Shown here one piece after another: positions 843 to 38,080 of a stretch of 64,000 nucleotides of DNA (position 1 is its first letter; each line of letters starts with the position of its first letter). This DNA is from Thermoplasmatota archaeon. GTDB taxonomy: Archaea > Thermoplasmatota > Thermoplasmata > Lutacidiplasmatales > JAMCUS01. The position numbers and the translations under genes were made by a program. A model generated the notes under the pieces. It did not search any database. It was not told where the DNA came from and saw only the letters and a program-made list of their open reading frames with translations. The stretch spans positions 11,640 to 75,639 of the forward strand of contig JAMCUS010000027.1 in NCBI GenBank assembly GCA_023379385.1, read 5' to 3'.

Positions 843-3800
843 TTAATGCGTAACTGGTATGTGGATTTTAGGGGGATTTCGGGGTCTTACTATTTTATTT
901 CTGCATACAGGACATATGTATGCAAAAACTGGTATTTCTTTTTGACAAGACGGGCATTTTATTGTTTTTGTTATTTTATTTTTTGTGGTTGTACCCTCGG
1001 TAACATAAGGTCTGCTGTTAAATGTGCCGTCTGGGTAAATATTATTGTTTTTACCATGAAATTGTGTACTGAATGAAGATTGTGGTTGTACCACAGATTG
1101 TTGGTGTAAGCTATACGGTACATTGGATGATATATATTGTCTATGAAAATCATATGGATTAACCCTGTGACTGGTTGTTAGATCTTTACCAACCGGTTTT
1201 GTGTCCCCGATTACCTTTTTATTCTTTGTTATCTTGGATATAATACTTTTACTCTTATCCATATAATTTTTTGCAATTTTAATGGTTTTCTCTCTGTAAA
1301 AGAACATAAGAATGAGTAATACCAATATTATAAAAATGATTATCACAAATATTGCTGATGATTCAAAACTGTTGATTCCTAACTGACCAGTAGTTGCTGA
1401 TACTGGCACAAACGTTATATTTTCCGTTGTGTTTTTATTAACTGTTATTATTCCTGTAGATTGAATTCCTGTTAGTTTATAACCATTTATAGTGGTTATT
1501 GTATAGTTATAACTGCCCATAACCTCCTTAAACGTTATGGAACTGCCAGTACCACTTTTATTAAAATTATTTAATGTTACGTACCATGTCGTGCCACCCA
1601 GCAACCCACTCTCTACGAATGTAACCATGTATACTACTGGTTTTACTGTAGCATAGTCTATTGTTATCTTTACCGGTGCACCTGTTACCTTAAACTGCCC
1701 TGTCGATGGCACTGCACTGTACCCCTGTACTCTTCCTATCGTATAATTGTAGGTACCATTCACTATACTGAACGTTACCGTAGTATTCGTTGAGCTTTCT
1801 GTATATATTGTATTCAATGTAACACTCCATGAACTACCTATAGGCAGCCCTCTCTCTGTAAACTCTACAATATATTTGGACGATATTGTAAAGGTTATAT
1901 TCTCCTCTACATTAGTTCCTTTAACTGCTATAACCCCCGATGACGGCGTCGCTATATAATTTTCATTTTCTATGCTAAACGTGTATGTACCATTTGATTC
2001 CTCAAATGTTATTGTATTGCTGCTTGAACTGCCTGTTATACCTGATAGTATTACGTACCAGGTCGTAGATGAGGGTAAACCTGATTCAACAAACTTTATT
2101 GTATACAGTGACGCAGAGGTAGATCTCCATGCTATCGTTTTGTTGATTGGTGCGCCTGTAATGTTTAAACTGCCTGTGGATGGCGTTGCTATATAATTTG
2201 GAATTGTATTAACTGTAAATGTATAGGTTCCATTCTGCAACATAAACTGAATTGTTGATATAACACTGCTTTTTGTATAACCGTCCACAGAAACAGACCA
2301 GTTCGTACGATCTGGCAGACCTGTCTCATTAAAGGTTACAGTATAGGAGGCCCCTGGTGCCCATGTGATTGTTTCCGTTATGTTTTTGCCACTGACTGTA
2401 ATAGTCCCATGAGATGGTGAAGATACGTATCCAGCTACATATCCAACAAGATAGTTATAGCTACCGTTCAATACCATAAAGATTATATTTTTTGTTCTTG
2501 CGTTATCTATAGTACTGTTCAATGTTACACTCCAATTAGTTCCAGTAGGTAATCCACTCTCTGTAAACGTTACACTGTACGTAAATAAATTAAATGTTAT
2601 AGATTCTGATACAACTGCTCCATTTACCGTAAATGATCCTGATGCCGGACTTGGTGCGTATTCCTTATTCCCAGTCGCTATACTATACGAATACGTTCCA
2701 TTCGGTAATTGAACGGTAATGGTTGTTCCTGTTGAACTTTGAGACGGTTGCCCTGTTATATTGACGTACCATGTAGTTCCAGTAGGTAATCCACTCTCTG
2801 TAAACGTTACACTGTACGTAAATAAATTAAATGTTATAGATTCTGATACAACTGCTCCATTTACCGTAAATGATCCTGATGCCGGACTTGGTGCGTATTC
2901 TTTATTCCCCGTCGCTATACTATACGAATACGTCCCATTCGGTTCACTAAATGTTATTGTACTCGTTGTTGATGAATATGATGCACCGCCTGTTATGTTT
3001 ACATACCATATAGTACCGGAAGGCAATCCTGATTCTGTAAACGTTACTCTGTATGTAACCAAACTAAATGTTATAGATTCTGATACAACTGCTCCATTTA
3101 CCGTAAATGATCCTGATGCCGGACTTGGTGCGTATTCTTTATTTCCTGTCGCTATACTATACGAATACGTTCCATTCAGTTCACTAAATGTTATTGTACT
3201 CGTTGTTGATGAATATGAGTTACCACCTGTTATGTTCACATACCAGATTGTTCCAGTAGGTAACCCACTCTCTGTAAACGTTACCGCATAGGTAGTTGTT
3301 GCACTTCCAAAATTGGCAGTCTCAGATACAGGCCCATTCATTGTAATGCTCACCTGATTAGTTGTTCCTGAATAACTACCCGCACCTGATCCGCTCCATG
3401 ACAGAAACTGGTATCCTGAATATGGCGTTGCTGATATAGATACAGAACTTGCCTCAGTATACCACCCACTTCCAGGTGTTACCGAACCTTCTCCTGCCGG
3501 ATTTTCACTCATTGTCAAATAATACTGCGTCTGGTAATTCACACCCTCATTAACAGGACCACCGTTGACAGTAACCGACGTACTTGATGGGCTGGTTATA
3601 TATTGAACACCACTACCCCCTGATATCGGCGTTTCTATACTGCACGAATATACACCATCAGGCTCATAAAACGTAATTGTAGATGACGTAGACGACTTGG
3701 TAGTACTACCCAGCGTAACCGACCACGAAGTACCAGATGGTAACCCACTCTCTGTAAATGTTACCGCATAGGTAGTTGTTGCACTTCCAAAATTGGCAGT

Positions 3801-5705
3801 CTCAGATACAGGCCCATTCATTGTAATGCTCACCTGATTAGTTGTTCCTGAATAACTACCCGCACCTGATCCGCTCCATGACAGAAACTGGTATCCTGAA
3901 TATGGCGTTGCTGATATAGATACAGAACTTGCCTCAGTATACCACCCACTTCCAGGTGTTACCGAACCTTCTCCTGCCGGATTTTCACTCATTGTCAAAT
4001 AATACTGCGTCTGGTAATTCACACCCTCATTAACAGGACCACCGTTGACAGTAACCGACGTACTTGATGGGCTGGTTATATATTGAACACCACTACCCCC
4101 TGATATCGGCGTTTCTATACTGCACGAATATACACCATCAGGCTCATAAAACGTAATTGTAGATGACGTAGACGACTTGGTAGTACTACCCAGCGTAACC
4201 GACCACGAAGTACCAGATGGTAACCCACTCTCTGTAAACGTTACCGCATAAAGTGGCGCTATATTAAAATTGGCAAACCAGTTATTAAATCCCGTATTAC
4301 TGGATAGTCCAGGTGTTCTAATTTCAAATAATAATCCATAAACTGTATCGGGAGTAAACATATAGGTAAATGTAGTAGAGTAATCTCCAAATTGTTCTGG
4401 CAAATACCCACTTGAAATTATTGTGCCTGTAGATGATAAATTTGCTTCTAATACGTATAAATTATTATTATTAAGATATTGCCAATAATTGATTACTACA
4501 CCTGATAACGGGTTAGACCATAGTCTACTTGCAGTTTCATATCCTTGCACATTAAATGATTTATGTATACTTGTACTATTCCATAAATACAGAGTAATAT
4601 TGTTATTGTTATTACCAGCATTTGGATATCCATTGACGGGTGGATTACCATTAGACCCCCACCCTCCACTAAAAAATGCATAACTTTCGGGTGAATGCCC
4701 CATATACACATTCCATGATTCAAATGCAGAATTGTTATATACAAAATCATGTATTGCCCCATAGACACCATGTGGATAATCTGCCGAACCATCGCCTAGA
4801 GCCCAGAAAGAATAATGGATAATTTTGTTTGATTCCAGTGCGTGTATCCTTTCTGTAATCTCCGATAATGAAAATTGTGAGTTTGTATTTGGGTTTTCAC
4901 CTTGTAATATAATTCCTACTGTAGATATTGGAAAATATGAAAGATCATTCTCCAAGGATTGTAAAAAAGTAGAGAAGTAACCATAATAATCCATGTCATA
5001 AAATATGTTTACAGTAGTTTTTGCAAGATCTTGGTAGTTCCACCACTCTGAATTATACCATGCAATATCTACAGTTATTATAAGTCCATTCTTATGTGCA
5101 TCATTTGAGAAAGTTGTAAGAAAATTTGCATAATCCTGTGCAAATGAAGATGGAATTGAAGCACCCTGTGGTTCCCAATCTATATTATAGCCTGCATACC
5201 CATTGCTTTCAGCAGTAGTTATTGCCTGATTTATAAAACTGGTCCATTCACCTGAATTTGTTACAAAATTGATTACATCAGTATCAGAACCCTCTGCAAT
5301 CATAGGAAATGCATTAAGTCCTAATTCTTTTGCGGTAGATATAACAGGATCTTGACCATAATTTGCTAAATTACCTGCTGAATCTAAGTAAAATTCTTCA
5401 TATGAAACAGCTGTTTCATTGTTTGAGTGTGCGGTTAATTCTGATAACCCCTGTTGAACATTTCCATATATAAATGGCATATATGTATTTTTTAAATTTG
5501 TTCCATCAGGAAATGTATTTAAAGTATTAAGCATATTTTTTGATACCTTAAAATGAGAAATTGAATAATCATTTGAATTATGTGATGTAGGAATCATACC
5601 AACTCTAAAGTTACTTAAAATTAAAAAATAGGTTGAAGAGATTATAACAAAAAATACTATAATAGCTATAATTTTTTTTATTTTTTGTGTATTACTGTAA
5701 CTCAT
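843..5705 (-). CDS. giant bitopic surface protein with an N-terminal TM anchor, a GH18-like glycosidase-like domain (NIDWEP motif), about ten ~85-aa VTFTESGLPxGTxWxV beta-repeats, a C-terminal TM, and a ~170-aa cytoplasmic tail ending in a CPSC-x14-CPVC zinc ribbon
   Basis: 1620-aa ORF. Hydrophobic stretches lie at residues ~12-32 and ~1425-1445. The DWE motif sits in the N-terminal domain. Internal repeats are visible at both DNA and protein level. The C-terminus reads CPSCQKEIPVFAYICPVCRNKI. Confidence 0.6.
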   Translation of the reverse strand: MSYSNTQKIKKIIAIIVFFVIISSTYFLILSNFRVGMIPTSHNSNDYSISHFKVSKNMLNTLNTFPDGTNLKNTYMPFIYGNVQQGLSELTAHSNNETAVSYEEFYLDSAGNLANYGQDPVISTAKELGLNAFPMIAEGSDTDVINFVTNSGEWTSFINQAITTAESNGYAGYNIDWEPQGASIPSSFAQDYANFLTTFSNDAHKNGLIITVDIAWYNSEWWNYQDLAKTTVNIFYDMDYYGYFSTFLQSLENDLSYFPISTVGIILQGENPNTNSQFSLSEITERIHALESNKIIHYSFWALGDGSADYPHGVYGAIHDFVYNNSAFESWNVYMGHSPESYAFFSGGWGSNGNPPVNGYPNAGNNNNNITLYLWNSTSIHKSFNVQGYETASRLWSNPLSGVVINYWQYLNNNNLYVLEANLSSTGTIISSGYLPEQFGDYSTTFTYMFTPDTVYGLLFEIRTPGLSSNTGFNNWFANFNIAPLYAVTFTESGLPSGTSWSVTLGSTTKSSTSSTITFYEPDGVYSCSIETPISGGSGVQYITSPSSTSVTVNGGPVNEGVNYQTQYYLTMSENPAGEGSVTPGSGWYTEASSVSISATPYSGYQFLSWSGSGAGSYSGTTNQVSITMNGPVSETANFGSATTTYAVTFTESGLPSGTSWSVTLGSTTKSSTSSTITFYEPDGVYSCSIETPISGGSGVQYITSPSSTSVTVNGGPVNEGVNYQTQYYLTMSENPAGEGSVTPGSGWYTEASSVSISATPYSGYQFLSWSGSGAGSYSGTTNQVSITMNGPVSETANFGSATTTYAVTFTESGLPTGTIWYVNITGGNSYSSTTSTITFSELNGTYSYSIATGNKEYAPSPASGSFTVNGAVVSESITFSLVTYRVTFTESGLPSGTIWYVNITGGASYSSTTSTITFSEPNGTYSYSIATGNKEYAPSPASGSFTVNGAVVSESITFNLFTYSVTFTESGLPTGTTWYVNITGQPSQSSTGTTITVQLPNGTYSYSIATGNKEYAPSPASGSFTVNGAVVSESITFNLFTYSVTFTESGLPTGTNWSVTLNSTIDNARTKNIIFMVLNGSYNYLVGYVAGYVSSPSHGTITVSGKNITETITWAPGASYTVTFNETGLPDRTNWSVSVDGYTKSSVISTIQFMLQNGTYTFTVNTIPNYIATPSTGSLNITGAPINKTIAWRSTSASLYTIKFVESGLPSSTTWYVILSGITGSSSSNTITFEESNGTYTFSIENENYIATPSSGVIAVKGTNVEENITFTISSKYIVEFTERGLPIGSSWSVTLNTIYTESSTNTTVTFSIVNGTYNYTIGRVQGYSAVPSTGQFKVTGAPVKITIDYATVKPVVYMVTFVESGLLGGTTWYVTLNNFNKSGTGSSITFKEVMGSYNYTITTINGYKLTGIQSTGIITVNKNTTENITFVPVSATTGQLGINSFESSAIFVIIIFIILVLLILMFFYREKTIKIAKNYMDKSKSIISKITKNKKVIGDTKPVGKDLTTSHRVNPYDFHRQYISSNVPYSLHQQSVVQPQSSFSTQFHGKNNNIYPDGTFNSRPYVTEGTTTKNKITKTIKCPSCQKEIPVFAYICPVCRNKIVRPRNPPKIHIPVTH
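2538..3250. repeat. three tandem ~237-240 bp imperfect repeats inside the 1620-aa gene
   Basis: The block agttccagtaggtaatccactctctgtaaacgttacactgtacgtaaataaattaaatgttatagattctgatacaactgctccatttaccgtaaatgatcctgatgccggacttggtgcgtattc recurs at about 2538, 2775 and 3012. Confidence 0.75.
3257..4250. repeat. near-perfect tandem duplication of a 480-bp unit (two copies) inside the 1620-aa gene
   Basis: Positions 3301-3720 are identical base-for-base to 3781-4200. The only mismatch seen is c/t at 3279 versus 3759. The duplication is in frame, and the protein shows a duplicated ~160-aa block. Confidence 0.9.
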
Positions 5706-5990: not shown

Positions 5991-6971
5991 ATGGTTGCCG
6001 GAAAGCCTAGACACGGATCCAATGATAAATCAGAAATCCGGGAATGGAAAAGAAGACAGGGTTTTGAAATGCTTAAGAAAGGCATGAAGAAATCAGTTAT
6101 ATCAAAAAAACTTGGAGTTAACCGTAAGACTGTATACAACTGGTCAGTTAAACTGAAACAGAGTGGAGACTGGCATGACAGGAAGCAGCCCGGTTCAAAG
6201 GGTAAACTCACAAAGGATCAGAAAGAGAAACTGAAGAGAATAATAGACAGTGGTCCAAGATCATACGGTTATGATACTGATCTGTGGACATTGAAGAGAA
6301 TATCTGAAGTTATATCAAAGGAATATAATGTAGAATACAACACAACATACATCTGGTGTGTACTGAAAAATTTAGGTTATTAGGCACAGATTCCGGTTGC
6401 AGTGGCCATGGAGAAGAATCCCGAATATGTGAAGGAGGCAAACGAGAAGAATGCAACCATTCTGTTCCAGGATGAATCAGGTGTACAGAGCAGGCCCAAT
6501 GTAAGAAGGACATGGTCAAAGCGTGGAAAGAGGCTAGGAATTAAGGTGGAGGAAAACAGGGGCCGGATATCAATCACCTCAGCTGTAACACCTGACGGTG
6601 GTCTATATTTCATGATAAGGAAGGGAAGCATGGACAGTGAAGATATCATATCCTTTCTGGATCAGCTTCTTTCAGAAATACATGGTTTCCTTTACATGTT
6701 CTGGGATAATATAACAATACACAGAAGCAGGATTGTGAAAGATTTCCTTGAAACAAACAATGACAGGCTGATAATCAGGAGAATCACTGCATATTCTCCT
6801 GAACTGAACCCGGATGAATATGTGTGAAATGCCTTGAAATATCAGGAACTGCCAAATTTCTGCCCTGCTAACATGGATGATCTTAAAAATAGGGTTATTT
6901 CAACCATGAACAAGCTAAAAAGTGATCCAGAAAAACTGAGAAACATCATAGGGGTTCTAGCCTTCCCCTGA
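5991..6971 (+). pseudogene. IS630/Tc1-mariner family transposase, one reading frame interrupted by two in-frame stops
   Basis: The N-terminal HTH part (5991-6383) and the DDE part (6402-6827) are in the same frame, separated by TAG at 6384-6386. A second in-frame TGA at 6825-6827 sits where IS630 transposases carry a conserved Trp (...YSPELNPDEYV*NALK). The frame then continues to TGA at 6969-6971. Local GC is visibly higher than the surroundings. Confidence 0.7.
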
Positions 6972-7056
6972 CGCCAATTATGGGAAAGAATTAGAGGAAA
7001 GTAGAATAGTTAAAAAATAAAAATACATAATGGATAAATATAAATTTGGTAAAGGG

Positions 7057-7878
7057 TTATAATTCTCTATTTTCTGAGTCATCCTCTGTTTTGCTATTTT
7101 TTCTTTTTTGCGTCGTTTTAACAAAAAAGAATACTAGCAATGCCGCAAATATTATAGCACCTATAACAATACCACTTTCCAACAACATATTTACATTGGT
7201 TGATGAAACGGTATTTGTATTAGTAGAGGATGACCCTCCTGTACTGTTACCTGGGTTGTTATTGCTTGTTGCAAACGTTACGGACTTTGACAATGCCGTA
7301 CCATTCACTACTACAGTTCCTGATGATGGCGTCGCTGCATAGCCTGATACGGACCCTATAGTGAATGTATATGAACCATTTACTTCTCTGAATGATACTG
7401 TCCCTGATCCTGACGAGGTGGCTCCGTTCAGCGTTACAGAGAAGCTTGTCCCTGATGGCAATCCCGATTCTACAAACTGTACTACATAGGTTGTTGGAGA
7501 GGTGCTGTTACCTGTTCCGTTGCCACCTCCCGTTCCATTGCCACCTCCCGTTCCGTTACCGCCTCCCGTTCCGTTACCGCCTCCCGTTCCGTTACCGCCT
7601 CCCGTTCCATTGCCACCTCCTGTTCCATTGCCAAAAATAGAGATTGCTGGAATGGTAGTATATACTTTGACAATTAAATTTGCAGGAACTTTGCATATAT
7701 TACTGTAATTAATTCCAATACTAGAGTTATGAGAGATAAAAAAGAGACTTCCACTTGCACCTGTACCTAAAATTATTACCAATAGCATTATAGATAAATT
7801 TTTTAATGGTTTTCTTTTCCAGTCCTTTTCTATAGACACATTTCTTTTTCTTATTTCTTCATAATTTACATTTTTCAT
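7057..7878 (-). CDS. bitopic surface protein with N-in TM, a (GNGTGG)7 low-complexity linker, a VQFVESGLPSGTSFSV beta-repeat domain, a Ser/Thr-rich stalk, and a C-terminal TM with a short acidic tail
   Basis: 273 aa. Hydrophobic segments lie at residues ~30-50 and ~235-255. The repeat domain is related to the repeats of the 1620-aa protein. Confidence 0.55.
   Translation of the reverse strand: MKNVNYEEIRKRNVSIEKDWKRKPLKNLSIMLLVIILGTGASGSLFFISHNSSIGINYSNICKVPANLIVKVYTTIPAISIFGNGTGGGNGTGGGNGTGGGNGTGGGNGTGGGNGTGGGNGTGNSTSPTTYVVQFVESGLPSGTSFSVTLNGATSSGSGTVSFREVNGSYTFTIGSVSGYAATPSSGTVVVNGTALSKSVTFATSNNNPGNSTGGSSSTNTNTVSSTNVNMLLESGIVIGAIIFAALLVFFFVKTTQKRKNSKTEDDSENREL
7507..7632. repeat. 18-bp tandem repeat x7 (cctcccgttcc[a/g]tt[g/a]cc[a/g]) encoding (GNGTGG)n on the minus strand
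   Basis: Read directly from the sequence. It is a GC-rich island in an AT-rich gene. Confidence 0.9.
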
Positions 7879-7959
7879 TCTACATTCACCTTGAATATAT
7901 AAGCTTTAGACACCTTTATATAGTGATGGTGAAGATACACCGTAGATACATCAAAAAAT

Positions 7960-7980
7960 AACGTATTTATGACGTATTTA
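7960..7980. promoter_or_regulatory. 21-nt motif aACGTATTTAtgACGTATTTA (two direct 9-mers), 82-102 bp upstream of the start codon of the 7057..7878 gene
   Basis: Exact 21-mer also present at 11148-11168. Both copies lie upstream of minus-strand surface-protein genes. Confidence 0.5.
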
Positions 7981-8019
7981 GTAGTGTTAGTGTAGAATGC
8001 AGCTAAAATGATAATGTAG

Positions 8020-9324
8020 TCAATTTGTTAGTGTCTGTTGAAGTTCTCTGGCTACTGCCTCACCCTTTTCTGTCAGGTAGTATGTTTTCATTCGTCGTCC
8101 TTTCCCTTTTACGTGTTTGACATCTACTCTGATTAAACCCCTATTCTCAAGTCTTTTGAGAGTATTGGTCAGAACATTCTGCTTTACACCCAGGCTATCA
8201 GCCATACCAATTTGTGTAAAACTTATCGGGGCTATTTCAAGCATATATAGGTTCCCCTGTTTTAGCAGGTGTATAAGAATTTTATCAGATATTTTAAAAC
8301 CACTGTTGTTTGAACTTTTGTTAGAATTTGTAGTTAATGTCGTCTGTAAAGTATCCTGTTTTGTAACAGCTGGTGCCTGTAGTGATATTTCTGTGGAAAC
8401 TTCTTTGTTAGTTGTTGATAATTTTTTATTTCCCCCTCTTTTTTTATAAAAACCAAAACGTAAAAGTAACACTGTACAACCTACACCTATTGCGACACCA
8501 CCTATAATAAATAAAACCAATTGTACAACAGATATAACTAAATTGTTGGAATTTGGTGTTGATATATTGTTAGATGGTGTGGCAACATTAATTATAATAA
8601 AAGCGGAGGTAGATCGATCGCTTGTATCGATCACCGTAAGTGTAGCATTATATCTGCCAGGTCTAAGGTATGTATAATTTATATTTAATCCACTGCCAGT
8701 CCCACCATCTCCAAAATGCCATGTAAACGCAATGTAGGTTCCCGTTCCACCGAAAACACTGCCGTTGAACTGCACGGTAAGTGGTGCAGTTCCATTCTTT
8801 GGATTTGCGTATATGACTAATTTTAATGGGGAATACCATGTATGGATTGATAGAGGTTTACTTGAGAAATTGGTACCACTTACATTTACAGTTACAGTAA
8901 CATTGAAAAATCCAGCTTCAGTATACAGGTGAGATGGCGCAAATGCTGTGCTGCTGTTGAGGTAAACATGATCGCCAAAGTTCCAGGAATACCAGGTAGG
9001 AGTCCCACTAGCTGTCATCATAAAAGATACGAGAAGAGGTATACTTCCACTATGTTTGTTGGCCGTGACGTTAACTGTAAATGTACCTGGCAATAGATAA
9101 GTGAACTTATAGATATTATGACCGATATTATGGTTAAATAGGCTATTTAACTGATTATTACTTATGTTTTTTACTAAATTTACTCTGTTTACAGGTATTG
9201 TTTCTGTATGTATTGTGTATTGGATCAATGGTCCATATGATAATGTGAATAACACCATTACTAGAATTATATAAAAAAGTGTAGAAAAAAAGCCATTTCT
9301 TATTTTATTATTTTTAGTAAACAA
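8020..9324 (-). CDS. bitopic membrane protein with N-in TM, two extracellular PKD-like domains (WxFGDG motifs), a second TM, and a ~150-aa cytoplasmic C-terminal region ending in a winged-helix DNA-binding domain; candidate transmembrane one-component transcription regulator
   Basis: 434 aa. Hydrophobic segments lie at ~14-34 and ~257-285. WNFGDH and WHFGDGG sit between them. The C-terminus ILIHLLKQGNLYMLEIAPISFTQIGMADSLGVKQNVLTNTLKRLENRGLIRVDVKHVKGKGRRMKTYYLTEKGEAVA has the helix-turn-helix plus beta-hairpin wing pattern of MarR/ArsR-like wHTH. Confidence 0.55.
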   Translation of the reverse strand: MFTKNNKIRNGFFSTLFYIILVMVLFTLSYGPLIQYTIHTETIPVNRVNLVKNISNNQLNSLFNHNIGHNIYKFTYLLPGTFTVNVTANKHSGSIPLLVSFMMTASGTPTWYSWNFGDHVYLNSSTAFAPSHLYTEAGFFNVTVTVNVSGTNFSSKPLSIHTWYSPLKLVIYANPKNGTAPLTVQFNGSVFGGTGTYIAFTWHFGDGGTGSGLNINYTYLRPGRYNATLTVIDTSDRSTSAFIIINVATPSNNISTPNSNNLVISVVQLVLFIIGGVAIGVGCTVLLLRFGFYKKRGGNKKLSTTNKEVSTEISLQAPAVTKQDTLQTTLTTNSNKSSNNSGFKISDKILIHLLKQGNLYMLEIAPISFTQIGMADSLGVKQNVLTNTLKRLENRGLIRVDVKHVKGKGRRMKTYYLTEKGEAVARELQQTLTN

Positions 9325-9376
9325 AGAATTTCTACCCTCTTTATATTATATCGATTGCATATTGCTATACCACAAT

Positions 9377-10975
9377 TTATATTTTTTTAAATTCATCATT
9401 AGTCTTTCTGCGATATATACCATTTTCATAAATCTCTGGACTGTTTGTTTGAGCCTTTTGATTATATCCATTTTCATCACCCTTGGGCTTAGGTGATCTC
9501 TTATTCCTCCACCGGTTACCAACGATTACTACAATAACTCCAGCAATTACACCTCCTATTATTCCCATTAACAGGTAATTACCTGTTATAATCGTAGCAG
9601 ATGAGGATTGTTCAGCTGTGTTTATGGCTTTTACTGTTATTACAGCATCATACAGATGCAATGTAATGTTTACAGAGTCTGTAACCATAAGTGACGGATG
9701 GAATATACCTGCGGTAGTATATGTGTGTGTTATATTCATTCCAGGTAACGATGACCCATAATTACCATCCCCAAAATTCCACTGGATAGTGTATGATGGA
9801 ATTCCGCCGTGGATAATTGTCAGAAACGTTACGGTTGACGGTGCATAAGGATTAGATGGTAGTTTTATTGATGTCTGTACAGAAAATGAGCTATTATTAA
9901 TTCTACTGCTTGTATAATTTACTACATAATATATGGACTCATACTGTGCAATATACCCTTCAGAATTCACTGCAATGAGTGATGGTGCAATAGTAACTGC
10001 AGTTGCGTTGGATACTGCAACAGGGTAGGTGTAGTTAAGAAAAACCATGCTAAGTGTAGTTTGTATACTCCGGTTTGCACCGTTACCAAAATTCATTCTG
10101 TAAGTAAATGGAGAATCCAGTGCCAGTGCACTAACAGTGAATTGAATTTTGTCACCTTCTTTAATATAACCTCCGGATGAAATGGCAGTATTAGTGGTCA
10201 GATCTTTTACTTTATAATATGCCAAAAAGAAACTGGATAACGTTCCGTTTGGTGACTTTACACTACTATTGCTTACAGTAACGGTTAGATTCGCATATGC
10301 AGATACGCCTGTATTATCGGTTACTGTCAAGATTACGTCGTAGGTTCCAGCTAACTGATATGTATGTATCGGATTCTCACTGGATGATATGGCTCCGTCA
10401 TCAAAGTTCCATTGCCATTGATACGGAGGTACACCACCTGAGGCACTTCCATTAAATGCCACTGTAAGATTCTTTTGAGATGCAATTCGTATGTATGCAA
10501 TCAGCGTATTATTTGTCTTATTGCCAACAGTAATGGTAATATTAGCATATGCGGTTAAGTTGTTGGAGTCCGTTGCTGACAGGGTTACATTGTAGATTCC
10601 AGCTGACTGATATGTATGTATAGGATTTTCACTGTATGATATGGCTCCGTCATCAAAGTTCCATTGCCAGTAATACGGTGGTGCACCACCTGAGGCATTC
10701 CCATAAAATTGTACTGTTAAGGGTGTAGAACCGTTCATGGGATATGCAGAGGCATATGCAGAAAGTACACTGCTATTACTGGCTATGGCTGATACTGTCG
10801 TAGGAGTTAATGAAGCAGAGTATGGTTGCCTAAATTCTCCATTGATGTTACCGGTAAAAAAGTATGGACTGCCACTTATGATCAGGATTAATATTAGTGT
10901 AAGAACAGATAACTGAACAAATGCTATCGAAATAAACGATCTATTAACATTGCATTTTTTCTTATTTTTATCCAT
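9377..10975 (-). CDS. bitopic surface protein with N-in TM, several PKD-like domains (three WxFxDG motifs), a C-terminal TM and a ~45-aa cytoplasmic tail
   Basis: 532 aa. WQWNFDDGAISYSENPIHTY occurs twice and WNFGDGNYGSS once. The C-terminal hydrophobic segment is followed by RWRNKRSPKPKGDENG... Confidence 0.55.
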   Translation of the reverse strand: MDKNKKKCNVNRSFISIAFVQLSVLTLILILIISGSPYFFTGNINGEFRQPYSASLTPTTVSAIASNSSVLSAYASAYPMNGSTPLTVQFYGNASGGAPPYYWQWNFDDGAISYSENPIHTYQSAGIYNVTLSATDSNNLTAYANITITVGNKTNNTLIAYIRIASQKNLTVAFNGSASGGVPPYQWQWNFDDGAISSSENPIHTYQLAGTYDVILTVTDNTGVSAYANLTVTVSNSSVKSPNGTLSSFFLAYYKVKDLTTNTAISSGGYIKEGDKIQFTVSALALDSPFTYRMNFGNGANRSIQTTLSMVFLNYTYPVAVSNATAVTIAPSLIAVNSEGYIAQYESIYYVVNYTSSRINNSSFSVQTSIKLPSNPYAPSTVTFLTIIHGGIPSYTIQWNFGDGNYGSSLPGMNITHTYTTAGIFHPSLMVTDSVNITLHLYDAVITVKAINTAEQSSSATIITGNYLLMGIIGGVIAGVIVVIVGNRWRNKRSPKPKGDENGYNQKAQTNSPEIYENGIYRRKTNDEFKKI

Positions 10976-11147
10976 ATATCTACCCTCTATTTTTCGTTAT
11001 TAGGTTAAAATTATTTTTTCTTTTTCTGATGGCGCTAGTTTAGTCATCATTGGCTTATATCATTTTATCTTATTTCCGTATATCTATAATATTTTTTCAT
11101 CTTTAAATAATGATTGTAAAGATACGCTATAAATACATCAATTTACA

Positions 11148-11168
11148 ACGTATTTATGACGTATTTAT
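11148..11168. promoter_or_regulatory. second copy of the 21-nt aACGTATTTAtgACGTATTTA motif, 173-193 bp upstream of the start of the 9377..10975 gene
   Basis: Exact match to 7960-7980. Confidence 0.5.
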
Positions 11169-11429: not shown

Positions 11430-11762
11430 TCATTCATTTACTGAACCTCCATTTAACTTGCCTGATAGCGAACGGAGACTGTATTCTCCCGTCAATCCTA
11501 AGAATTCTAAATTCTTTGCACCTGCATGATCTGCATTATCTACATGACCACATCGCAAACATAAGAAGTTAGCTCCCCTACGATTTCTTCTGTCTATGTT
11601 GCCACATTCAGGGCATCTCTGCGATGTCTTCCAGGGGTCTTTGCGATATACGGATATCCCAAGCTCTTCACATATCTGCTCTAACCGATTGCCGACCCTG
11701 GCATAATGCCAGAAAGACAGAAGTCTGTTTACCCCACGTGAAAACCTTCCACGTTTATTCAT
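11430..11762 (-). pseudogene. tnpB: TnpB (IS200/IS605 OrfB) C-terminal remnant carrying only the RuvC-III and zinc-finger region
   Basis: 110 aa containing ...TSQRCPECGNIDRRNRRGANFLCLRCGHVDNADHAGAKNL. Full TnpB is about 400 aa. The frame ends at the nfo stop codon, so the N-terminal ~300 aa are missing. Confidence 0.65.
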
Positions 11763-36814: not shown

Positions 36815-38080
36815 TTAGTGACTGATAGTGGCATATCTCAGTAGGGCACCTAGACCATTAAATGCTTTGTAAAACATCTCTCCTTCATCAAAGTCCGCAG
36901 ATATCATCTCAACTTTAGTTCCGTATTTATCCGCCAGTGTATATATTGAGTCAATAAAATCCTGATTCTCTGTTATGGTCATTGTGCCATCGCATCTACT
37001 GCATTTTATAGACGGCTCCATTTTTTTGGTTGTATCTGTAATAGATACTTTTTCAATACTGTTACAGATGTTACAACGATAGGTTACAATGCCTTTTCTT
37101 ATGTTTTCCGATATAAAAACAGAATCTACAATTCCTTTTGATATGGATTCAATTACCTCTTTTTCACCATATATTGCCAGACCACTACCTTTTTTTATCT
37201 CTAAAAGAAAATGTTCAATCATATGTTTTTCTTTTGTTATATCCAGATCAGCCAATATATTTACAGATTTTTCAACTACTTCTCTGAGACCATATTCGTC
37301 AGTGTATCCGACATCTATCAGTGGCAATAGCACTTTTTTCTGAAGTTCATAATGCAGATAATTTTCACTCAAAAAAAAATCTTTGGTGGGGCCAGGTCCA
37401 CCCAGTAAAATACCCTTCAAGCTGTCTTTGACTGGAAGGAAGGCATCTTCGGCTAGTGTAGCTACATTTACAAAAAAAGCATGAGCTGCCTGTTCTATAA
37501 GCCTTTCAAATCTGTGTTGTGATTGACCCCCTCTTCCATGCTTACTGGGAACCATTGACTGTTTATTTTTTATGGGTATAATTCTGGTTCCTTTCAAAAA
37601 ACCTAAAGTAACCTCCTTTCTATCCATAACAATTAAGCCGTAAACATCCTTTATATCAGTCATTACCTCAAGTGGTTCAACGTAAAAAAAGGAATCACAT
37701 CTGTACATATATGTATTTATGGGCTCAATTGGCTCTATAACATAGGATACCGGCTCAGTCTGATCACTGGATACAGCTTTATTGCCCACGAAAAATACAA
37801 TTCCATTTGGAGGCGGTTCCTTATAAACTTTGACCTTGTTTATTAAAGATTCAATTGCCCACATCACATTTTTTCTGGTGACACGTGATTTTATATTAGA
37901 TGATTGCGAGTATTCGTTTCTTAAATAGGCAACGACATCAGAAATCTGCCTACCAGGTGGAACGTAAAGAGAGATGAGCTCGGTAGCTCTACCTTTACAT
38001 TTTTCTACCTCTTCTAGTTTCCTTTTCAACATATACCTCTGATGTTGACTGATAACTGGTAATTTTGACGACATAAACAT
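36815..38080 (-). CDS. prf1: peptide chain release factor aRF1
   Basis: 421 aa with the GGQ motif (HGRGGQSQ) and an NIKS-like region near the N-terminus. Confidence 0.8.
   Translation of the reverse strand: MFMSSKLPVISQHQRYMLKRKLEEVEKCKGRATELISLYVPPGRQISDVVAYLRNEYSQSSNIKSRVTRKNVMWAIESLINKVKVYKEPPPNGIVFFVGNKAVSSDQTEPVSYVIEPIEPINTYMYRCDSFFYVEPLEVMTDIKDVYGLIVMDRKEVTLGFLKGTRIIPIKNKQSMVPSKHGRGGQSQHRFERLIEQAAHAFFVNVATLAEDAFLPVKDSLKGILLGGPGPTKDFFLSENYLHYELQKKVLLPLIDVGYTDEYGLREVVEKSVNILADLDITKEKHMIEHFLLEIKKGSGLAIYGEKEVIESISKGIVDSVFISENIRKGIVTYRCNICNSIEKVSITDTTKKMEPSIKCSRCDGTMTITENQDFIDSIYTLADKYGTKVEMISADFDEGEMFYKAFNGLGALLRYATISH

Follow-up and report, generated by a model that had tools for sequence, protein, structure and literature searches.

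Transmembrane transcription regulators (TTRs) are defined by a predicted DNA-binding domain and at least one predicted transmembrane (TM) region within one polypeptide (Demey et al. 2023, PMC10269533). A census of 2023 counted TM-containing regulators in 367 of the 404 archaeal species covered (PMC10269533), so an earlier, sequence-only reading of the present locus overstated the case in calling such a regulator very rarely described in archaea. Among archaeal membrane-bound regulators, only ArnR and ArnR1 have been studied experimentally; their two binding boxes, located at -43 to -84, are inverted repeats of the form TCGAC-N5-GTCGA, and they activate surface-structure genes (PMC6396743). ArnR is crenarchaeal (Sulfolobus acidocaldarius); it begins with an HTH, continues with a cytoplasmic HAMP-like plus sensor domain, ends in two TM helices, and has no extracellular domain of appreciable size (PMC6396743).

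The window analyzed here, a 64-kb stretch of archaeal DNA, encodes a 434-aa protein that combines a winged helix-turn-helix (wHTH) domain with a TM helix, the two sequence features named in the TTR definition (PMC10269533). It resembles ArnR and ArnR1 in being archaeal and membrane bound and in the presence of paired boxes 5' of BRE/TATA at surface-structure genes (PMC6396743), but its domain order is the reverse and it has no HAMP match, and it is thus set apart by its architecture. With ToxR, TcpP, and CadC, it shares an extracytoplasmic sensor, a single TM, a disordered linker, and a cytoplasmic wHTH in one polypeptide (PMC10269533), as well as candidate sites that are direct repeats. As in the ToxR-ToxS “co-component” system, the locus also codes for a further membrane protein whose extracytoplasmic domain is related (PMC10269533; PMC13042144). 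Unlike in ToxR and CadC, which are type II proteins, the wHTH is C-terminal, the sensor is N-terminal behind a signal sequence, and the predicted topology is type I; the sensor consists of PKD domains, and both the host and the promoter (TATA/BRE) are archaeal. The wHTH is PadR/MarR-like rather than OmpR/PhoB-type and lacks a Trans_reg_C match, which places the protein outside the ToxR/CadC group.

Gene structure and membrane topology

The gene and the parts of its product are located as follows.

8020..9324, (-) strand: PKD-PKD-TM-linker-wHTH gene, 434 aa, with a TTG start and its stop codon at 8020-8022 (ORF list)
9334..9339, (-) strand: Shine-Dalgarno-like GAGGGT, 9-10 nt 5' of the TTG (read from the sequence)
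9229..9297, (-) strand: N-terminal hydrophobic segment, a signal peptide or signal anchor, residues ~10-32 (up to ~38 by hydropathy), with K4, K7, and R9 ahead of it
8836..9087, (-) strand: PKD domain 1, residues ~80-163, with WNFGDH at 114-119 (Pfam PKD_4/PKD; model strands 80-162)
8581..8826, (-) strand: PKD domain 2, residues ~167-248, with WHFGDG at 202-207 (best Pfam stretch 174-240; model strands 168-248)
8452..8541, (-) strand: TM helix, residues ~262-291, containing GVAIG (GxxxG motif) and followed by YKKRGGNKK (hydropathy 2.65; model helix 261-293)
8302..8451, (-) strand: S/T/N/Q-rich low-complexity cytoplasmic linker, residues ~292-341 (pLDDT < 50 in the model)
8023..8301, (-) strand: C-terminal wHTH, residues 342-434, a1-b1-a2-a3-b2-b3-a4, with recognition helix KQNVLTNTLKRL and wing HVKGKGRRMKTY

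The product is identical to NCBI MCL4326154.1, which carries the label [quoted passage not shown] The ORF list, Pfam, hydropathy, and the domain model confirmed the originally proposed 434-aa frame with its PKD pair, TM, and C-terminal wHTH. The order is N-terminal signal/anchor, two PKD domains, TM helix, K/R cluster, ~50-aa low-complexity linker, and 93-aa wHTH; the proposed cytoplasmic tail is present, with a length of 143 aa rather than ~150. Because the Shine-Dalgarno-like box (AGAGGGTAGA, GAGGGT) is also found ahead of the neighboring gene's ATG at 10975, the TTG start is favored over internal Met23.

Assignment of the ectodomain to PKD is based on two stretches each for PF18911 (E=6e-25, 87.6 bits) and PF00801 (E=2.9e-22, 78.9 bits), with scores above the gathering cut-off, WxFGDG-type motifs, and beta strands across residues 80-248. 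The region resembles archaeal PKD surface proteins in its tandem PKD domains, its abundance of N-glycosylation sequons (11 of 13 lie within residues 33-262), and the 33% identity of PKD domain 1 to PKD domains 1-2 of the adjoining upstream surface protein. It differs from them in that a cytoplasmic DNA-binding domain replaces the short basic tail.

Both of the hydrophobic segments on which a two-TM layout had been proposed are present (residues ~10-38 and 259-292). The first is possibly a cleavable signal peptide, since the N-termini of homologues resemble such peptides; if so, the mature protein would cross the membrane only once, as a type I protein, instead of having two TMs. The cytoplasmic location of the C terminus is in agreement with the positive-inside rule: 7 K/R occur in the 24 residues past the second segment, and the family average of K+R around the TM is 3.17 after versus 0.29 before, with more after than before in 113 of 117 proteins. 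The sequon distribution agrees with this topology. GxxxG motifs occur in 53% of family TM helices versus 35 +/- 6% in shuffles, a modest enrichment that offers a hint about the TM helix and no more. The full-length AlphaFold model (3 sequences) was poor (pLDDT 50.9, with PKD1 weak), and the wHTH fold was judged from a separate domain model.

The C-terminal winged helix

That domain model has a pLDDT of 94.1 and a pTM of 0.84. In Foldseek, it matched MarR/PadR/ArsR/HxlR-type DNA-binding regulators, some of them DNA complexes, at TM 0.6-0.7; the closest structural neighbors are DNA-bound MepR, SlyA, ZitR, MarR, and QsrR. A PDB sequence-profile search with the wHTH returned transcription regulators in all matches (Rv3488, 2.6e-6; SlyA, 1.6e-4). 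The proposal of a wHTH fold thus stands, and we consider the domain a predicted DNA-binding domain on the basis of profile and model comparisons.

Assignment to a named family is less direct, as residues 342-434 match many wHTH families (HxlR, PadR, MarR, and NCBIfam SlyA). PadR PF03551 scores 19.9 bits with the full protein and 23.5 bits with the isolated domain, both below the 27-bit Pfam gathering cut-off, and 38 of 42 family members match PadR only under threshold. The two MarR profiles also stay under their cut-offs, PF01047 with 18.1 bits (cut-off 24.6) and PF12802 with 15.5 bits (cut-off 27), which leaves the protein outside MarR as defined by Pfam. HxlR PF01638 (cut-off 20.8) is matched marginally: the full protein scores 21.9 bits and the isolated domain 26.1, over profile positions 30-78 of 91 only, and HxlR matches at E<0.01 in only 21 of 42 family members. 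The wHTH shares the fold a1-b1-a2-a3-b2-b3 plus a C-terminal helix with soluble PadR (subfamily 2), MarR, and HxlR/YodB proteins, among which Rv3488 gives the 2.6e-6 match. In contrast to these, it is membrane tethered and has neither a ligand pocket nor MarR-type N-terminal dimerization helices; at ~93 aa with single flanking helices, it is well short of the ~140-aa MarR proteins. The most conserved residues of the family (Q44, R53, H66, R72/R73, and Y77 in alignment A5) map to the recognition helix and the wing, which form the DNA-contact region of MarR/PadR proteins.

A conserved surface-protein cassette and its promoter repeats

The sequence-only reading placed the gene between two surface-protein genes that share an identical upstream 21-nt motif. 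Both neighbors do encode TM-anchored surface proteins (ORF list, Pfam), and both copies of the motif are found exactly at 7960-7980 and 11148-11168, where 0 chance matches are expected. The 21-nt identity is part of a similarity that spans ~95 nt, and the motif is only the distal, inverted part of a larger candidate operator.

9377..10975, (-) strand: upstream partner, a 532-aa multi-PKD surface protein, 52 nt 5' of the wHTH gene and on the same strand
11102..11109, (-) strand: TATA box TATTTAAA of the cassette promoter, 9-10 nt downstream of the proximal repeat (read from the sequence)
11119..11136, (-) strand: proximal candidate operator of the cassette promoter, GTATTT-N5-GTATCTT direct repeats with an 11-bp period (exact pattern match)
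11147..11168, (-) strand: distal candidate operator, two copies of ATAAATACGT with an 11-bp period (reverse complement of the ACGTATTT half-site)
7057..7878, (-) strand: candidate second target, a 273-aa surface protein with an N-terminal TM, (GNGTGG)7 repeats, and a C-terminal TM
7915..7922, (-) strand: TATA box TATATAAA of the 273-aa gene promoter, with the ATG at 7878 ~37 nt downstream (sequence reading, alignment)
7932..7949, (-) strand: second copy of the proximal candidate operator, GTATCT-N5-GTATCTT, 5' of the 273-aa surface-protein gene (pattern match, alignment)
7960..7981, (-) strand: second set of distal inverted repeats, CTAAATACGTCATAAATACGTT (identical 21-nt motif)

The 532-aa partner has an N-terminal signal/anchor, a C-terminal TM anchor, and 3 PKD stretches in Pfam (E=4.8e-41). 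Orthologous partners lie upstream in seven related loci (L001, L002, L005, L013, L014, L015, and L018) and in L007, where one gene intervenes. In every locus with upstream sequence, the same strand carries, 5' of the wHTH gene and mostly directly adjacent, a gene for a PKD surface protein that is paralogous and anchored at its C terminus. A locus search with a narrower alignment gave only 10 metagenome loci. On the other side, the 273-aa protein holds one copy of a ~78-aa repeat from the neighboring 1620-aa protein, and its gene is a probable second target of the 434-aa protein.

In outline, the promoter element consists of two GCGTATC repeats 11 bp apart, ~9 nt 5' of a TATA box, with inverted copies farther upstream. 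The proximal pattern has two exact copies in the window versus 0 expected; the only additional 1-mismatch site in the window scan, at 37042-37059, is within an ORF and is no more than chance would give. Related genomes were scanned over short flanks, and the element was conserved with the gene pair in 7 distantly related genomes, the window's proximal element aligning with 6 others. The pattern GTATY-N6-GTATCTT is present a single time in each of L002, L007, L013, and L015, always 5' of the cassette, and had 0 matches in 300 Markov simulations of 137 kb; L005 carries a 1-mismatch variant and L001 an inverted one. In L001, L005, L007, L013, and L015, the corresponding position holds inverted GATACGC half-sites. 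In all aligned elements, a TATA box follows ~9 nt downstream (TATTTAAA aligns with TATTTGAA / TATTTCAA of other loci), and a long ORF begins 39-50 nt past the motif.

Conservation of the recognition helix (R/K)QNxLTNxL(R/K)RL coincides exactly with the subfamily that bears the repeats. Short-form relatives have another recognition helix (AQPALAKVLRRL, RQSSLTKVLARL) and lack the motif, and no GTATC repeats were found near the short-form TM-wHTH genes of L009, L017, and L020. Based on this co-conservation in 7 genomes and on cis-linkage, we infer that the repeats are the putative sites of the 434-aa protein, though another factor could bind them. A regulatory role gains support because the conserved element adjoins the TATA box of the very operon that encodes the protein.

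Distribution of the PKD-TM-wHTH family

An exhaustive profile (HMM) search with the wHTH returned 1774 clusters at E<=1e-3, of which 580 remained at E<=1e-10, giving a family of at least 580 protein clusters (clustered at 50% identity). This overturned an initial picture of a near-unique fusion, for which a word-indexed homologue search had yielded 3 full-length relatives and 1 C-terminal-profile match. The wHTH is almost always C-terminal (median, 13 residues after the domain) with a TM helix ahead of it, and 76 of 151 family proteins analyzed have the PKD-TM-wHTH layout, so that about half share the PKD-PKD-TM-wHTH plan of the present protein; members that bear names are Thermoplasmata MAGs. 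Judging from the cluster counts, the C-terminal position, and the share of this layout, the fusion is under selection. A gene-fusion or assembly artifact was ruled out, as the same reading frame recurs in dozens of clusters and independent assemblies. A TM was not detectable in 34 of 151 wHTH database proteins. At least some of these entries are mis-started or truncated ORFs; P0032 and L011 represent pieces of genes with the PKD-TM-wHTH layout. P0032, an 86-aa “MarR family regulator,” had been considered a free-standing form, but its contig shows that it is the 3' part of a PKD-TM-wHTH gene that has been truncated. Within the 64-kb window, tblastn found no wHTH paralogues elsewhere.

A literature search turned up no specific description of a PKD-wHTH membrane regulator, and “PKD” is absent from the text and from the available parts of the supplement of the TTR census (PMC10269533). 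The family is apparently undescribed, and it is a new architecture inside a known class, the transmembrane transcription regulators.

A probable membrane-resident regulator and its alternatives

We judge it rather probable that the 434-aa protein is a membrane-resident one-component transcription regulator that autoregulates its surface-protein cassette. The interpretation offered from sequence alone is supported on both points at which it could have failed: the C-terminal fold is of a DNA-binding type, and the C terminus is predicted to be inside. The two PKD domains would face outward, and one TM helix and a flexible linker of ~50 aa would carry the PadR/MarR-like wHTH into the cytoplasm. 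There, the wHTH would bind GCGTATC-type heptamers, of which two direct repeats 11 bp apart would lie ~9 nt 5' of TATA, at roughly -40 to -60, with one or two inverted copies farther upstream. Its targets would be its own operon of PKD surface protein and regulator (promoter 11102-11168) and, in the source genome, the adjoining 273-aa surface-protein gene (promoter 7915-7981). The ectodomain, which is paralogous to the PKD surface protein encoded beside it, probably senses the cell-surface state; it could report partner binding, self-association, or cell/substrate contact, and the signal would pass through changed oligomerization of the TM-wHTH part. We assume that the membrane-fixed factor would reach its promoter through coupled transcription, translation, and insertion of membrane proteins from the target locus. 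MarR/PadR dimers usually bind palindromes rather than 11-bp direct repeats, a point against this assignment of wHTH to operator.

The regulator probably switches on its own surface-protein gene cluster directly from the membrane. Activation rather than repression is suggested, and an activator role fits because the repeats lie ~9 nt 5' of TATA, like the ArnR boxes of Sulfolobus. The same tethered protein on the same repeats might instead block TFB/TBP or loop DNA until a surface signal relieves repression. Most MarR/PadR relatives repress, the proximal repeat ends ~9 nt from TATA, near the expected BRE, and the two site sets, 10-25 nt apart, could permit looping or oligomer spreading. In archaea, a repressor site as a rule overlaps BRE/TATA or the start site. 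A position wholly upstream, as in the present promoters, is typical of activators, e.g., the ArnR boxes at -43 to -84 (PMC6396743), and we regard repression as very unlikely.

Direct action from the membrane can also be questioned. SREBP, Notch, and bacterial regulated intramembrane proteolysis provide precedents for cleavage and release, and the protein could be an inactive, membrane-held precursor in which a surface signal triggers a cut near the TM helix or linker, the freed wHTH then acting on the same repeats. The TM helix is Gly-rich, family linkers are long, disordered, variable, and P/A/S/G-rich (median, 69 aa; range, 15-290), and the 34 wHTH proteins without a detectable TM would agree with release. 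Against this, at least some of those entries are truncated or mis-started (P0032, L011), no conserved protease gene lies beside the cassette in the loci examined, and ToxR, CadC, and ArnR act while membrane bound (PMC10269533, PMC6396743); we therefore consider release unlikely. An equally improbable account would make the protein a surface adhesin or structural PKD protein whose wHTH serves as a nonspecific DNA/nucleoid tether or protein-interaction module, with a soluble regulator binding the repeats. Its gene does sit among surface-protein genes, and databases label it only as a PKD protein, but conservation peaks at the MarR/PadR DNA-contact sites of the recognition helix and wing, the sequence-profile neighbors are all bona fide regulators, and the specific repeat element co-occurs with exactly the subfamily to which this protein belongs.

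For the membrane-resident activator, a broader generalization is possible, which we hold tentatively and rate somewhat short of probable: a large Thermoplasmata family of type I “co-component” TTRs in which a PKD ectodomain, paired with a co-transcribed paralogue, relays the cell-surface state straight to the wHTH, which activates its own operon via 11-bp-spaced GCGTATC repeats beside the TATA box. If so, the principle would reach further surface proteins through relatives whose only TM helix is N-terminal or whose ectodomains span 850-1100 aa. Cultivated Thermoplasmatales are wall-less. The PKD-wHTH family has a defined extracellular module, whereas ArnR and ArnR1 are without a real extracellular sensor, and it suggests kinase-free coupling of cell-surface events to transcription in archaea. 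It may also serve as an inverted-topology counterpart of ToxR/CadC for comparing tethered DNA-binding domains, and the predicted operator and target genes make the proposed regulation directly testable. Hundreds of entries labeled only “PKD domain-containing protein” or “hypothetical” could be corrected. Some database versions of the protein are 412 aa, begun at internal Met23.

Regulator gene, topology, and fold

The sequence-only reading proposed a 434-aa protein that joins PKD domains outside the cell to a winged helix-turn-helix (wHTH) domain inside. This open reading frame is real, and the claimed layout was borne out by Pfam matches to two PKD domains, winged-helix matches, two hydropathy segments, and the distribution of charged residues and sequons. 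The protein, here the regulator, is encoded as one half of a gene pair (the cassette):

8020-9324, minus strand: regulator, 434 aa, TTG start
9377-10975, minus strand: partner, a 532-aa multi-PKD surface protein with a C-terminal transmembrane (TM) anchor, ending 52 nt upstream of the regulator gene

We favored the TTG start over the internal Met23 of some 412-aa database versions because a Shine-Dalgarno-like box, GAGGGT, lies 9-10 nt 5' of it, matching the AGAGGGTAGA box 5' of the partner gene's ATG. The PKD domains (PF18911, E=6e-25; PF00801, E=2.9e-22) are accompanied by hydrophobic segments at residues 10-38 and 259-292. Three K/R residues precede the first segment and seven fall within 24 residues past the second, and 11 of 13 N-X-S/T sequons are situated between the two, a signal of predicted outside-PKD, inside-wHTH topology. 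Because the N-termini of high-GC homologues look like cleavable signal peptides, the first segment may be one as well.

The last ∼75 residues gave many weak Pfam and NCBIfam matches, every one to a winged-helix family. These included HxlR (21.9 bits; cutoff, 20.8), HTH_Crp_2, PadR, MarR, and NCBIfam SlyA (3e-7). The domain cannot be assigned to any one Pfam family: its PadR and MarR scores fall below threshold, and its HxlR match is marginal and covers only part of the profile. An AlphaFold model from a 42-sequence alignment of the domain was confident (pLDDT, 94.1; pTM, 0.84), with topology a1-b1-a2-a3-b2-b3-a4. Foldseek matched it in the PDB to MarR/PadR/HxlR-type regulators only (query-normalized TM score, 0.6-0.7), including the DNA complexes of MepR, SlyA, RovA, and ZitR, and the family sequence profile matched PadR-like Rv3488 (2.6e-6) and SlyA (1.6e-4). 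All structural and profile neighbors are thus transcription regulators, in line with the helix-turn-helix-wing C-terminus originally claimed. The domain is predicted from the model to be a winged helix of DNA-binding type and, by its profile matches, appears to be a distinct family inside the MarR/PadR-like group. Invariant or near-invariant alignment columns in the recognition helix and wing are Q44, L47, L51, R53, L54, H66, V67, G69, R72, R73, and Y77.

Family size and architectures

A word-indexed search recovered only three full-length relatives (36-38% identity, all from high-GC MAGs), but the near-unique fusion that this implied was rejected, as exhaustive HMMER searches with the C-terminal profile found hundreds of clusters (clustering at 50% identity; 1774 clusters pass E<=1e-3, and 580 pass E<=1e-10). 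We surveyed architectures in the 150 best matches plus the query set (151 proteins).

Architectures among the 151 proteins surveyed
Signal/TM, PKD (one or two), TM, linker, wHTH: 76 of 151, median 427 aa
N-terminal TM, linker, and wHTH only: 36 of 151, median 216.5 aa
Other ectodomain, TM, wHTH: 5 of 151, 362-886 aa
wHTH with no detectable TM: 34 of 151, median 140.5 aa

The wHTH nearly always lies at the extreme C-terminus (median of 13 residues beyond it in these proteins), preceded by a TM helix in 117 of the 151. Three PKD-class members reach 717-1113 aa, two more proteins of ∼1000 aa had no TM by the method used, and some entries without a TM are demonstrably truncated ORFs. Across the family, the 15 residues after the last TM hold a mean of 3.17 K+R versus 0.29 before it (after > before in 113/117), and the linker from TM to wHTH (median, 69 aa) is rich in P/A/S/G. 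Both features provide strong, independent support for a predicted cytoplasmic wHTH on a flexible tether.

In the databases, members come from Thermoplasmata, Thermoplasmatota, or Euryarchaeota MAGs and are labeled "PKD domain-containing protein" or "hypothetical protein"; IMG auto-annotation in one case gives [quoted passage not shown] Short-form relatives (L009, 6001-6630; L017, 376-1023; L020, 951-1556) have an N-terminal TM, a Pro-rich linker, and a wHTH with no ectodomain. One archaeal cassette with archaeal-type neighbors, e.g., diphthamide synthase, occurs in "MAG: bacterium isolate DX1.bin10" (JAKBKR010000006.1), a bin that is probably misclassified as bacterial.

Gene pair with a PKD surface protein

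An upstream partner on the same strand was found in every locus for which upstream sequence exists (L001, L002, L005, L013, L014, L015, and L018, and L007 with one intervening gene), so that regulator and paralogous surface protein form a conserved operon. Over 179 residues, the tandem PKD domains of the regulator share 33% identity with partner PKD domains 1-2, and the TM helices are alike (FIIGGVAIGVG in the regulator, GIIGGVIAGVI in the partner); the regulator therefore resembles a shortened paralogue of its partner to which a winged-helix tail has been added. The short-form relative in L009 sits directly after a gene for a 1255-aa Kelch/PKD surface protein. In L013, a soil Thermoplasmata contig, an extra gene (4492-5472, plus strand) lies between the operator-bearing promoter and the partner-regulator pair. 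In its product, N- and C-terminal TMs bracket a long, acidic low-complexity region (G/S/D/N), an architecture that recalls the window's 273-aa surface protein.

A repeat element at the cassette promoter

By aligning cassette upstream regions from genomes differing widely in GC (∼35% in the window, high in the others), we found a common element of two direct repeats, (G)YGTATC(Y), with a period of exactly 11 bp and terminating in GTATCTT. A TATA box (TATTTRAA) follows ∼9 nt downstream, and 10-25 nt upstream of the direct repeats the sequence recurs once or twice in inverted orientation (as GATACGC, or as AAATACGT in the window). L002, L007, L013, and L015 each carry a single strict match to GTATY-N6-GTATCTT, always on the cassette strand immediately upstream of the cassette, with a one-mismatch form in L005 and an inverted-repeat form in L001; a first-order Markov model of the distinct loci (137 kb) yielded no chance match in 300 simulations. 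In the window the strict pattern occurs exactly twice (expected, zero):

11119-11136: strict repeat pattern at the cassette promoter
7932-7949: strict repeat pattern at the promoter of the adjacent 273-aa surface-protein gene (7057-7878, minus strand)

The element is thus conserved and positionally fixed at the cassette promoter, and in the window it is shared with this neighboring gene. In the six related loci a long ORF begins 39-50 nt past the motif, a spacing that matches archaeal promoters with short leaders. Partner starts by longest ORF or annotation in L001 (5744), L005 (1104), L015 (5122), and L002 (6408-6433) lie upstream of or across the conserved element and are therefore probably wrong, the real starts being 39-50 nt past the motif. 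The L002 partner gene is apparently also frameshifted near its 5' end. In the window, a leader of ∼100 nt (10976-11101, minus strand) separates the cassette promoter from the ATG at 10975; at all other promoter copies a start codon lies 39-53 nt past the repeat element.

The 21-nt upstream motif reported earlier is exactly at 7960-7980 and 11148-11168, with zero chance matches expected; its identity and position stand, while its extent does not, as the two upstream regions are alike over ∼95 nt. Its reverse complement, AACGTATTTATGACGTATTT, carries two copies of the repeat heptamer, again with a period of 11 bp, so that the motif would be the distal, inverted half of one putative operator. With these refinements (signal peptide and longer similarity), the original observation is confirmed and its interpretation is supported computationally.

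Proposed mechanism and alternatives

We propose that the winged helix binds the promoter repeats and autoregulates the cassette. The element accompanies the subfamily with recognition helix (R/K)QNxLTNxL(R/K)RL and was not found near the short-form relatives with AQPALAKVLRRL or RQSSLTKVLARL (L009, L017, and L020). This co-occurrence, together with the conservation pattern of recognition helix and wing, argues against a nonregulatory role, in which the protein would, for example, tether DNA or protein while a different factor bound the repeats; we consider such a role improbable. Release of the winged helix by signal-triggered proteolysis seems about equally improbable, given that no protease gene is conserved near the cassette and that some "soluble" wHTH forms are fragments. 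For the sign of autoregulation, the repeats (about -40 to -85) are situated entirely 5' of the TATA box and expected BRE position. Their placement is like that of the ArnR boxes (-43 to -84), which activate genes for surface structures in Sulfolobus (PMC6396743). By this analogy activation is more likely, and repression is the least probable of these alternatives.

With an 11-bp spacing, two recognition helices would occupy the same face of the DNA, an arrangement suited to several membrane-tethered protomers. GxxxG is modestly enriched in family TM helices (53% versus 35 +/- 6% in shuffles), which hints at oligomerization as the regulated step. The input would probably be a contact made through the PKD domains, be it to the partner, to a second regulator molecule, or to a different cell or substrate, by analogy with the "co-component" ToxR-ToxS systems (PMC13042144). 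We assume that promoters reach the membrane by coupled transcription, translation, and insertion, which could occur because the targets encode membrane proteins.

Relation to known systems

By its predicted domains, the regulator qualifies as a transmembrane transcription regulator under the 2023 definition of Demey et al., which calls for a DNA-binding domain together with one or more TM regions (PMC10269533). The suggestion that such logic is very rarely described in archaea was overstated: that census counts these regulators in 367/404 archaeal species, so the class is no rarity among archaeal genomes, although ArnR/ArnR1 are its only studied members there (PMC6396743). The regulator is not a ToxR/CadC member (other wHTH type, reversed topology), nor an ArnR member (reversed domain order, no HAMP match), nor PadR or MarR in the Pfam sense. 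The word "PKD" is absent from the census text and from the portion of its supplements covered here, and no PKD-wHTH membrane regulator turned up in the full texts searched, although absence there is no proof of novelty. The regulator brings together a type I topology, a C-terminal PadR/MarR-like DNA-binding domain, a PKD sensor, a paralogous co-encoded partner, and a predicted operator. The concept is already known, but this large family lacks annotation and can now be put to a direct test.

Neighborhood of the cassette

Several further features flank the cassette:

843-5705, minus strand: 1620-aa surface protein with at least 10 copies of a ∼78-aa repeat
5991-6827, plus strand: IS630-like transposase, split into ORFs 5991-6383 and 6402-6827
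7008-7021: T5/T6 run immediately past the stop codon of the 273-aa gene, a likely archaeal terminator
7514-7633: 18-bp x6.7 tandem repeat encoding (GNGTGG)n of the 273-aa protein
11430-11762, minus strand: 110-aa ORF with a CPECG...CLRCG zinc finger, just upstream of the cassette promoter

The 110-aa ORF looks like a C-terminal fragment of a TnpB/IS605-OrfB-type protein. The IS630-like transposase is inserted between the genes for the 273-aa and 1620-aa proteins, which have a repeat domain in common, and may have separated a former operon. In the gene for the 1620-aa protein, a 480-bp unit is duplicated in tandem (x2.1, 99% identity; 3259-4250), and a 237-bp unit forms an array (x3.2; 2537-3284). 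The C-terminal TM of the protein is followed by a cytoplasmic tail of ∼140 aa with a zinc-ribbon-like motif, CPSC-x12-CPVC, at its end, making it a second surface protein with a possible intracellular binding module.
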